A stretch of DNA of 64,000 nucleotides from Escherichia coli. GTDB lineage: Bacteria > Pseudomonadota > Gammaproteobacteria > Enterobacterales > Enterobacteriaceae. The stretch is taken from the NCBI RefSeq assembly GCF_029227855.1, contig NZ_CP074356.1, one strand, 5' to 3'. Each line of letters begins with the position of its first letter. Within the stretch, counting starts at the first letter, position 1. This document shows positions 53,731-56,700 of the stretch, piece after piece. Made by a program: the position numbers and the translations under genes. A model generated the notes under the pieces. The model did no database searches. It had not been told where the DNA came from and saw only the letters and a program-made list of their open reading frames with translations.

Positions 53731-56700
53731 TGCCACTGCTGGATAAGCTGCGTGAGCAGTACGGGGTCGGACCGCTATGCAGCGAACTGCATATTGCCCC
53801 GTCAACGTATTACCACTGTCAGCAACAGCGACATCATCCGGATAAACGCAGTGCCCGTGCGCAGCGCGATGACTGGCTGAAGAAAGAGATACAGCGCGTA
53901 TACGATGAAAATCACAAGGTATACGGTGTGCGTAAAGTCTGGCGTCAGTTGTTACGGGAAGGTATCAGAGTGGCCAGATGCACTGTGGCACGTCTCATGG
54001 CGGTTATGGGACTTGCCGGTGTTCTCCGGGGTAAAAAGGTCCGTACGACCATCAGCCGGAAAGCCGTTGCCGCAGGCGACCGCGTAAACCGTCAGTTCGT
54101 GGCAGAACGACCTGACCAGCTGTGGGTGGCTGATTTTACTTACGGTGTGCCCGGAGTTCAGGGCGGGCATGGATGCTTAAATGAACCGCGAGTATGTCTG
54201 GAATATTGAACCGGTAACTCACGATGAGAAACCCAACAATCCCACCGGGTGTGACGGTGGAGAACCTGAGCGGCAGTGACCTGCGGCATGCCCGCAGGGT
54301 GATGTAACCCGCTGACAACGGGGATTGAGGCGAGATCACTAAGCCGAGATGATCTTCAAGGTTAAGTACTGAAAGGCTGAAGAACATGAACCCGTTAATC
54401 CGCCTCTGTGGGTTGAAAACGTCACCACGGCCTACGTGATCTGACAGGCCGTGCAGGAGGAACTGGCAGTGATACGTAAGCACTGCCGGTCGAAGGTGTT
54501 TTGACATGTATGCGAAACACCGGGGCAGCAGCGTCTATCACGCTTGCGTTGCTGACTTCTGCCAACTTGCGGCAAGCAAGGATAAAGAGTGCGACGGGCA
54601 GCCTCCTCAGTATGCCTGAGTCCAGGCAGGTAAACCGGGGAAGGTCAGCGACGGATGTTAAGGGGGCATGGCTCCGATGACGCGCTGGCTGGCGGAGCTT
54701 CCGTAGTAGTCCGCGATGGGGAAAGCCCATTACATGGCGAAGGGAAGCAGTTTGAATGTGTTTGCGACGTGAATTAACTGACCTAACGAGGTGAAGACCT
54801 TTGATAATCAGCGAAATGCAACGCAAGCTTGCCACATGGGCAGCCACCGATCCGTCCCTACGGATTCAACGGCTGCTGCGTCTGATAACACAACCAGAAT
54901 GGCTGGCTGAAGCGGCGCGGATCACGCTTTCATCAAAGGGGGCCCATACCCCCGGCGTTGATGGCGTGAACAAAACAATGCTACAGGCCAGACTGGCTGT
55001 TGAGCTGCAAATCCTCAGGGATGAATTACTCTCAGGCCACTACCAGCCCTTGCCCGCCAGACGGGTTTACATCCCTAAAAGCAACGGCAAACTGCGACCA
55101 CTGGGTATCCCCGCGTTGCGGGATCGTATTGTTCAGCGGGCCATGCTGATGGCGATGGAGCCGATATGGGAGAGTGATTTTCATACGCTCTCATATGGCT
55201 TCCGGCCTGAGCGCAGTGTCCACCACGCGATCCGCACGGTGAAATTACAGCTCACAGACTGTGGTGAAACCCGGGGACGCTGGGTGATTGAAGGCGACCT
55301 GTCCAGTTACTTCGACACCGTACATCATCGACTGCTGATGAAGGCTGTACGCCGCAGGATCAGTGACGCACGTTTCATGACTCTGCTGTGGAAAACCATC
55401 AAGGCGGGACATATCGATGTCGGTCTCTTTCGGGCGGCCAGTGAAGGTGTGCCACAGGGCGGTGTTATATCGCCGCTATTATCGAACATCATGCTGAATG
55501 AGTTCGATCAATACCTGCATGAGCGCTACCTGAGCGGGAAAGCCAGAAAAGATCGGTGGTACTGGAATAACAGTATCCAACGGGGCCGAAGTACGGCGGT
55601 CAGAGAAAACTGGCAGTGGAAACCCGCGGTGGCGTACTGCCGCTATGCCGATGATTTTGTCCTCATCGTCAAAGGCACCAAAGCACAGGCGGAAGCCATC
55701 AGGGAGGAGTGTCGGGGTGTGCTCGAAGGCAGTCTGAAACTCAGGCTGAACATGGATAAGACTAAAATCACCCATGTTAATGACGGCTTTATCTTTCTGG
55801 GGCACAGGATCATTCGCAAACGCAGTCGTTATGGCGAGATGCGAGTGGTCTCAACGATCCCGCAGGAGAAAGCCAGAAACTTCGCCGCATCGCTGACAGC
55901 ACTGTTATCAGGCAACTACAGTGAAAGCAAAGTCGATATGGCTGAACAACTCAACCGAAAACTGAAAGGCTGGGCCATGTTCTATCAGTTCGTTGATTTT
56001 AAGGCCAAAGTCTTCAGTTATATCGACCGTGTCGTGTTCTGGAAGCTGGCTCACTGGCTGGCCCGCAAATACCGTACAGGTATCGCTTCCCTGATGAGGT
56101 GGTGGTGTAAATCACCGAAACCGGGTCAGAGCAAAACGTGGGTTTTATTTGGTAAAACCAATCACGGCAAGCTCAGCGGCGAAATACTGTACCGGTTGGT
56201 GGGGCAAGGCAAGAAGCTGTTCCGCTGGCGGCTACCCGAAGGTAATCCCTATCTGAGGACGGAGACCAGAAACACGTATACATCGCGCTTTACAGAAGTG
56301 GCAATGGCGTTCGACAGCATTTAAATGGAGAGCCGGATGCGCTGAAAGGTGCACGTCCGGTTCGGGGAGGAGAGGCAGGGAAATAGTCCGACTACGCCCT
56401 GCCTCTTACTCTACTCAGCACATGGCGGGGCTTCGTCTATGTGGCGTTCATCATTGATGTGTTTGCCGGATACATCGTGGGGTGGCGGGTCTCATCGTCC
56501 ATGGAAACGACATTCGTGCTGGATGCACTGGAGCAGGCGTTATGGGCCCGTCGACCGTCCGGCACGGTCCATCACAGTGATAAAGGTTCTCAGTATGTAT
56601 CGCTGGCCTACACACAGCGGCTTAAGGAAGCCGGATTACTGGCATCAACAGGAAGTACAGGCGACTCGTATGACAACGCGATGGCGGAGAGCATCAATGG

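Follow-up and report, generated by a model that had tools for sequence, protein, structure and literature searches.

An insertion sequence whose transposase gene is split by a retroelement raises the question of whether the gene is dead, is silenced by its passenger, or is mended at the level of RNA. Such a locus lies in a window of 64,000 nt from Escherichia coli (assembly GCF_029227855.1, contig NZ_CP074356.1), where the orfB gene of an IS629 element is divided into two parts. The initial annotation, made from the letters of the DNA, described a group II intron nested inside the transposase gene and a splice junction that restores the reading frame. It is concluded here, with a probability of about 0.94, that a known group II intron, E.c.I4 of bacterial class A, is present here as a copy which is full-length and apparently intact and spans 2,270 nt at 54145..56414 (GUGUG...CUAC). 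All coordinates refer to the plus strand unless stated otherwise. The sequence features on which the first description relied are far beyond chance.

Both conserved intron ends are present. The 5' end is GUGUG at 54145-54149, of the GUGYG type, and the 3' end closes with CUAC at 56414, of the AY type. The GTGTG that begins at 54145 stands directly 3' of the exon motif GCTGATTTTACTTACG, which is found a single time in the window, at 54129-54144. The intron had at first been placed at 54156-56414; its 3' end was exact, but the true start, 54145, is 11 nt further left. Support for the 3' part comes from the Rfam model of domains V and VI, RF00029, which matches 56328-56414 with 64.9 bits (E=1.7e-10; gathering score 40) and stops exactly at the intron 3' end. 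Domain V (56330..56363), delimited by the Rfam match together with the fold, has the AGC triad, a 2-nt bulge and the GAAA tetraloop, so that the earlier description of it as canonical stands. In domain VI (56366..56412) the base that bulges from the fold as the branch point is A56408, seventh when counted from the 3' end. The segment that comprises the two domains folds at -48.2 kcal/mol, against -28.4 +/- 3.4 in shuffles (z=-5.9). Folding of domains I to VI, which had been suggested as a check, therefore bears out domains V and VI but yields no canonical model of domains I to IV from either Rfam or RNAalifold. Because a search of 54100-54860 with the Rfam domain I-IV models at a permissive E-value gave chance matches only, these domains carry no assignment by homology. 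The RNAalifold consensus over the first 684 columns has 187 pairs, 12 of them compensatory, and shows a non-canonical long-range closure and no textbook group II fold; for that closure the global fold was dropped as a basis for domain assignment.

The intron carries an open, full-length reverse transcriptase/maturase reading frame, located in domain IV at 54801..56324. The 507 residues first ascribed to this protein are obtained only when translation is begun at the TTG at 54801; RefSeq, where the gene is named ltrA, starts at the ATG at 54816 and gives 502 aa. The product scores 340.9 bits against TIGR04416, the NCBIfam equivalog for group II intron reverse transcriptase/maturases (curated cut-off 300 bits). 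Its Pfam domains are RVT_1 (residues 91-337) and GIIM (residues 361-426), and the YADD motif is intact at residue 282. A search for an HNH endonuclease gave no Pfam match in the protein and no C-x2-C motifs in its C-terminal 85 residues. Class A, to which E.c.I4 and S.f.I1 have been assigned, is one of the classes with an intron-encoded protein that is without a D/En region (Toro and colleagues; PMC3552965, PMC4244168), and the probable class A placement of E.c.I4 is adopted here from these two studies. Taken with the RF00029 match, the TIGR04416 score, the RVT_1 and GIIM domains and the EBS1-IBS1 pairing with covariation set out below, the original designation as a group II intron is well founded.

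The host is a complete IS629 of the IS3 family, at 53350..56929, with terminal inverted repeats (TGAACCGCCCCGGG...) at both ends. Subtraction of the 2,270-bp intron from the 3,580 bp of the interrupted element leaves exactly 1,310 bp, which retain the inverted repeats, orfA and the ALIL pseudoknot; the claim that the intron is nested in IS629 orfB is thereby upheld. The intact orfA (53404..53730, 108 aa) is on the list of open reading frames and matches the N-terminal part of NF033516. At 53685..53801 lies the ALIL pseudoknot (RF01497, 120.2 bits, E=1.1e-30; gathering score 50), which signals the programmed -1 frameshift by which orfA is joined to orfB. The first exon of orfB (53727..54144) ends ...GAT TTT ACT TAC G, that is, with D136-F-T-Y139 and the first base of codon 140; the second (56415..56887) starts TC AGC ACA TGG... 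and runs through the stop codon. When 54144 is joined to 56415, an open OrfB of 296 aa results, which scores 314.6 bits against the IS3-family transposase model NF033516 (cut-off 160 bits) and includes a complete rve integrase-core domain at residues 127-223. An intact OrfB after exon joining had been predicted, and that prediction holds. An alignment in which the proposed boundaries broke OrfB had been named as a possible refutation; in the alignment OrfB is unbroken, and over the 199 nt of the spliced junction there is 100% identity with IS629 copies that are uninterrupted. The intron thus interrupts codon 140 in phase 1 and in sense orientation, directly after the D136-F-T-Y139 codons of the rve domain, a motif that we take to hold the first catalytic aspartate of IS3-family and retroviral-type DDE enzymes.

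In RefSeq, both halves of the gene are labelled as pseudogenes, 'IS3-like element IS629 family transposase', 'incomplete', because the annotation pipeline models no intron splicing. From the layout of the exons it is a sound inference that full-length OrfAB would come from this IS629 copy only by way of a spliced mRNA. No target-site duplication was found around IS629, the flanking triplets being TAC on the left and CTC on the right, and an IS100 istB and an integrase, both truncated, are its neighbours in RefSeq. These flanks suggest IS-mediated rearrangement, and because there is no target-site duplication this copy of IS629 may be the product of such a rearrangement rather than of recent transposition. 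The absent duplication bears on the history of the copy and not on its family membership.

How the intron would recognize its target can be read in part from domain I. A hairpin at 54463..54489, with the stem CUGGCAGUG/CACUGCCGG and the loop AUACGUAAG, presents the hexamer CGUAAG (54475-54480), which forms 6/6 Watson-Crick pairs with CUUACG (54139..54144), the sequence with which the 5' exon ends. Pairing in the stem is kept across relatives through compensatory changes (G-C to A-U; G-C to C-G or U-G). The loop (54472-54480) is the most variable spot of an otherwise conserved region and covaries with the 5' exon of each copy. With the register set by the copy in the window, 21 distinct intron/exon combinations gave 58 of 84 pairs at the four variable positions, against 49.4 +/- 2.8 with shuffled exons; this level of pairing was reached by 38 of 20,000 shuffles, and position -6 shows both C-G and G-C. 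On complementarity and covariation, CGUAAG/CUUACG is accordingly assigned as the EBS1-IBS1 pairing.

Two other segments were tried as EBS1 and rejected. With wobble pairs allowed, UGUGGGU (intron 263-269) could serve as EBS1 for all host insertion sequences, but it is near-invariant in relatives, shows no exon covariation, and is also ruled out by its position mostly inside helices in the MFE and consensus folds. UGUAUG (intron 363-368) lies 3' of the covarying hairpin and is UGUAAG in relatives without matching exon changes. The sequence also lets the GUGGGU of UGUGGGU, extended by the U that follows, form pairs with AACCCGC (intron 162-168), which likewise speaks against it as EBS1.

A candidate for EBS2 is ACGUCA (54419..54424), in the loop of a hairpin some 50 nt upstream of EBS1; its probable partner, IBS2 UGAUUU at 54131..54136, includes the Asp136 codon and would pair with it at 5/6 positions. 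Across relatives, U or C as the second loop base goes with an exon A or G; the covariation is modest, and ACGUCA as EBS2 is suggestive only. UGAUGU (intron 156-161), which does not vary, is a second candidate for EBS2. Every copy has U as its +1 exon base, hence there is no covariation for EBS3/delta; A54474, just 5' of EBS1, may pair with this U.

Judged by the predicted pairing, IS629 is the best-matched target of E.c.I4. Identical intron copies also reside in ISEc31 and IS911-like sites, which pair with EBS1 at 4/6 positions and are mismatched at -1, so EBS1 pairing alone leaves the choice of target partly unexplained. What the sites have in common is their place in the protein: the intron copies in IS629, ISEc31, IS911-like and other IS3-type genes all follow the D-x-T-Y codons and one further base. 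The same holds beyond E. coli. A scan of species-representative genomes with the first 20 nt of the intron found 44 related loci in Enterobacterales, Vibrio, Photobacterium, Marinobacter, Pseudomonas and others, with 68-100% identity over domain I, and nearly all of the 42 readable upstream flanks, as well as the plasmid relatives, end in a D-x-T-Y-type codon run plus 1 nt. By comparison, the class A introns described in 2013 were 'three nearly identical' ones; the present loci are far more numerous and more diverse.

A broader proposal would have the E.c.I4 lineage specialise, across Gammaproteobacteria, as a parasite of IS3-type DDE transposases at their catalytic D-x-T-Y codons, with EBS1 and EBS2 reading these codons and with poor exon ligation acting as a brake on IS3 transposition. 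As a whole this proposal is tentative, and rather unlikely to hold in all its parts. Its first part, a target position shared throughout the lineage, is supported by the flanks just described and by the covariation of EBS1 with the exons; its second, the brake on IS3-family transposition, would follow by likeness to what has been proposed for RmInt1.

The element itself is well known. Over its 2,270 nt the intron is 100% identical to positions 4833754-4836023 of E. coli E24377A (NC_009801.1), and the 10,270 nt around it differ from that genome by 1 base. Leclercq & Cordaux 2012 (PMC3522654, supplementary file 4) list the E24377A locus as E.c.I4-9 (NC_009801, 4833753-4836023, minus strand, 99%), so that the orthologue of the very copy in the window has already been catalogued. 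The comparison with catalogued E. coli group II introns that had been called for thus leads to E.c.I4 and to the orthologous copy E.c.I4-9 (PMC3522654). The name E.c.I4 denotes at least 95% identity in the Zimmerly database, and it is applied to the window by way of E.c.I4-9, itself 99% identical to the reference; this identity draws on the 2012 catalogue and the 2013/2014 phylogenies, and no observation speaks against it. Specific positions in the transposases of IS629, IS911, ISEc16 and ISEc31 were described as targets of E.c.I4 in the same work, in which E24377A has 7 full-length copies and every potential homing site of that strain is reported as occupied (PMC3522654). IS629 had been given as the host gene for E. 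coli and Shigella introns in a table of 2008. The intron is therefore not new: the element, its class, its preference for IS629/IS3 transposases and this chromosomal copy were all published between 2002 and 2013. As a discovery, E.c.I4 in IS629 carries little weight, being a textbook case already published down to the locus.

The comparison with E24377A also yields a filled/empty pair. That genome has a second copy, E.c.I4-2b, at 12.6 kb from E.c.I4-9, which is absent from the window. In its place the window has an empty homing site on the minus strand at 41545..41546 (...GAT GTG ACC TAT A|TC TGG...), in a degenerate IS911-like element of the IS3 family. Where window bases 41546 and 41545 adjoin, E24377A is longer by exactly 2,270 bases (GTGTG...CTAC), inserted without any duplication. 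An IS66 adjacent to it in E24377A is also missing from the window. The absence of E.c.I4-2b is a real strain difference, and the pair is independent confirmation of the intron boundaries. The two E24377A copies, E.c.I4-9 and E.c.I4-2b, differ at 7 positions, and the filled/empty pair shows very recent movement of the intron. The polymorphism relative to E24377A is usable as a strain marker.

The intron is widespread. Of 5,426 complete E. coli genomes, 2,346 carry it, 1,873 of them with a near-full-length copy, and it is present in 1,833 plasmids from Escherichia, Klebsiella, Salmonella, Enterobacter, Yersinia and others, for the most part at identities of at least 99%. Coverage of a 200-nt probe across the boundary between IS629 exon 1 and the intron was seen in 1,446 genomes, roughly one complete E. 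coli genome in four, and coverage of the uninterrupted IS629 junction in 3,097. E.c.I4 at its usual IS629 homing site is ordinary.

Established group II biology suggests how this arrangement would have arisen and how it might be maintained. E.c.I4 would have retrohomed into the transposase gene of IS629, the target that fits it best. The intron would be co-transcribed with orfAB from the IS629 promoter, and the maturase would aid RNA folding and lariat excision via the bulged A56408. The resulting RNP could then reverse-splice into DNA sites that match EBS1 and EBS2, and, because the protein is without an endonuclease, nascent strands at replication forks would probably serve as primers for cDNA synthesis.

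The outcome for IS629 would depend on how often the exons are ligated, and no measurement of exon-ligation efficiency for E.c.I4 was found in the literature searched. The strongest alternative therefore concerns the same intron with a different effect: it would excise often enough to stay mobile, with ligated exons too rare to be of use, so that IS629 is silenced. The model for this is RmInt1, which likewise is without an endonuclease and inhabits an IS transposase gene, and whose splicing amounts to 0.07 +/- 0.02% in its host and 0.016% in E. coli (PMC3035460); its authors argue that the spread of the IS is limited by the intron (PMC3035460, PMC4238363). Such a brake would be in keeping with the persistence of occupied IS629 copies in the 1,446 genomes and with the reported occupation of all homing sites in E24377A (PMC3522654). 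RmInt1, however, is a class D intron of a lineage different from that of E.c.I4, and efficiency is intron-specific, the splicing of Ll.LtrB being 85-315 times better than that of RmInt1 (PMC3035460). The perfect 6/6 EBS1-IBS1 match at IS629, moreover, would favour accurate use of the 5' splice site. Silencing of IS629 by a live intron is a serious contender, at odds well short of even.

That the intron is instead a dead relic, able neither to splice nor to move, and IS629 a permanently disrupted pseudogene, is very improbable. This reading takes the two 'incomplete' pseudogenes of RefSeq/PGAP at face value and can point to E.c.I4 copies with disrupted ORFs in some other strains (Leclercq & Cordaux, PMC3522654) and to the IS629 copy without a target-site duplication. 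The labels, however, come from a pipeline with no model of intron splicing, and the intron has a full-length open ORF with YADD, and domain V, domain VI and EBS1 are intact. Copies 100% identical to this intron occur in several unrelated strains, thousands more are at 99.7-99.9%, and the nearby copy gained by the sister genome, with its 7 differences, argues for very recent activity. Chance placement of two IS629 fragments around an unrelated retroelement, or an artefact of assembly, to which only the missing target-site duplication could lend support, is effectively refuted by fragments that join to exactly 1,310 bp in an open frame, by the recurrence of the same junction in 1,446 complete genomes, by the match of the spliced junction to uninterrupted IS629, and by intron relatives that occupy the homologous codon position across Gammaproteobacteria.

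With a full-length, apparently intact E.c.I4 as the preferred reading, the labelling of intron-bearing IS629 copies as pseudogenes gives too low a count of potentially functional IS copies across about 1,400 complete E. coli genomes. Were the exons poorly ligated, E.c.I4 would act as a natural and widespread suppressor of IS629, which is important for the genome plasticity of pathogenic E. coli and Shigella.

Among known systems, Ll.LtrB of Lactococcus lactis, the model group II intron of bacteria and the source of the name ltrA that RefSeq gives to the present ORF, has the same layout, with an ORF in domain IV, retrohoming guided by EBS/IBS pairing and residence in a gene of a mobile element (a relaxase). 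It differs in its class ML / IIA RNA and in that its LtrA protein has an endonuclease domain, which the E.c.I4 protein is without. LtrA combines a C-terminal DNA-binding/endonuclease domain with target-primed reverse transcription. Closer in biology is RmInt1 in ISRm2011-2 of Sinorhizobium meliloti, likewise a mobile intron with an endonuclease-less protein in an IS transposase gene, and one whose host transposase needs splicing. RmInt1 differs in belonging to class D / IIB3, in the family of its host IS (ISRm2011-2 is of the IS630/Tc1-type family) and in the very low exon ligation that has been measured for it. The nearest counterpart is E.c.I4 / S.f.I1 itself, of E. coli and Shigella flexneri, which is the same element, with the same IS629 host gene, the same position and the same endonuclease-less reverse transcriptase/maturase. 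Relative to E.c.I4 in E24377A nothing of substance differs, the strain of the window being set apart by a neighbourhood without E.c.I4-2b and without IS66.

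A second, unoccupied E.c.I4 homing site lies at 41545/41546 (minus strand), within a degenerate IS911-like element of the IS3 family (about 41071-42310), and reads ...GATGTGACCTATA|TCTGGACGGG.... In E. coli E24377A (NC_009801.1) exactly the same site is filled by a second copy of the intron, E.c.I4-2b, with an IS66 element adjoining, whereas the window strain has neither the intron copy nor the IS66 there. The window strain is therefore a close relative of E24377A, distinct from it. E.c.I4-2b (12600-14869 of the E24377A stretch L009) differs from the window intron (54145-56414) at seven positions. 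One of these differences, G327A, breaks the base pair that closes the EBS1 hairpin, and the copy that carries it is the one occupying the IS911-type site, which is the poorer match.

The IS629 that houses the window intron has no target-site duplication, with TAC on its left and CTC on its right (flanks 53340-53352 and 56927-56940). It is bordered by a truncated istB of IS100 (52936-53229, minus strand) and by a truncated and frameshifted P4-type integrase (about 56890-58067, minus strand) that sits beside a tRNA-Leu gene (58233-58314, minus strand). It looks as though an IS mediated a deletion or rearrangement here, at the margin of a genomic island associated with tRNA-Leu. Immediately upstream of what remains of IS100 and IS629 is an apparently intact IS3 element (51438-52609, minus strand), for which RefSeq annotates orfA and orfB with a programmed frameshift; its OrfB has an IS3-type D-x-T-Y site that is free of E.c.I4. 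Elsewhere in the window are an isolated 174-bp fragment of the IS629 3' end (30982-31155, 96.6% identity) and a match to IS102 RNA (Rfam RF00124; 18995-19231, minus strand; 73.6 bits against a gathering threshold of 46).

Within 54788-54818, a good Shine-Dalgarno sequence, GAGGTGA (54788-54794), precedes TTG 54801, and none lies close to ATG 54816, the start chosen by RefSeq. Because only the TTG has such a motif nearby, it may be the true start, giving a protein of 507 amino acids. Both halves of the IS629 orfB (53260-54144 and 56415-56887) are labelled 'incomplete' pseudogenes by RefSeq/PGAP because group II intron splicing is not modelled, and identical labels are attached to each intron-bearing IS3-family element inspected.

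Relatives of E.c.I4, grouped by a shared first 20 nt of the intron and possibly members of class A, occur at 44 loci (L010-L053) in Gammaproteobacteria, with hosts that include Vibrio, Photobacterium, Marinobacter, Pseudomonas, Halioglobus, Serratia, Pectobacterium and Rahnella. Their domain I identity to E.c.I4 falls to about 68%, and nearly all are inserted at the same D-x-T-Y codon position of IS3-type transposase genes. As described in 2013, class A, to which E.c.I4 is assigned, comprised only three members, nearly identical to one another.
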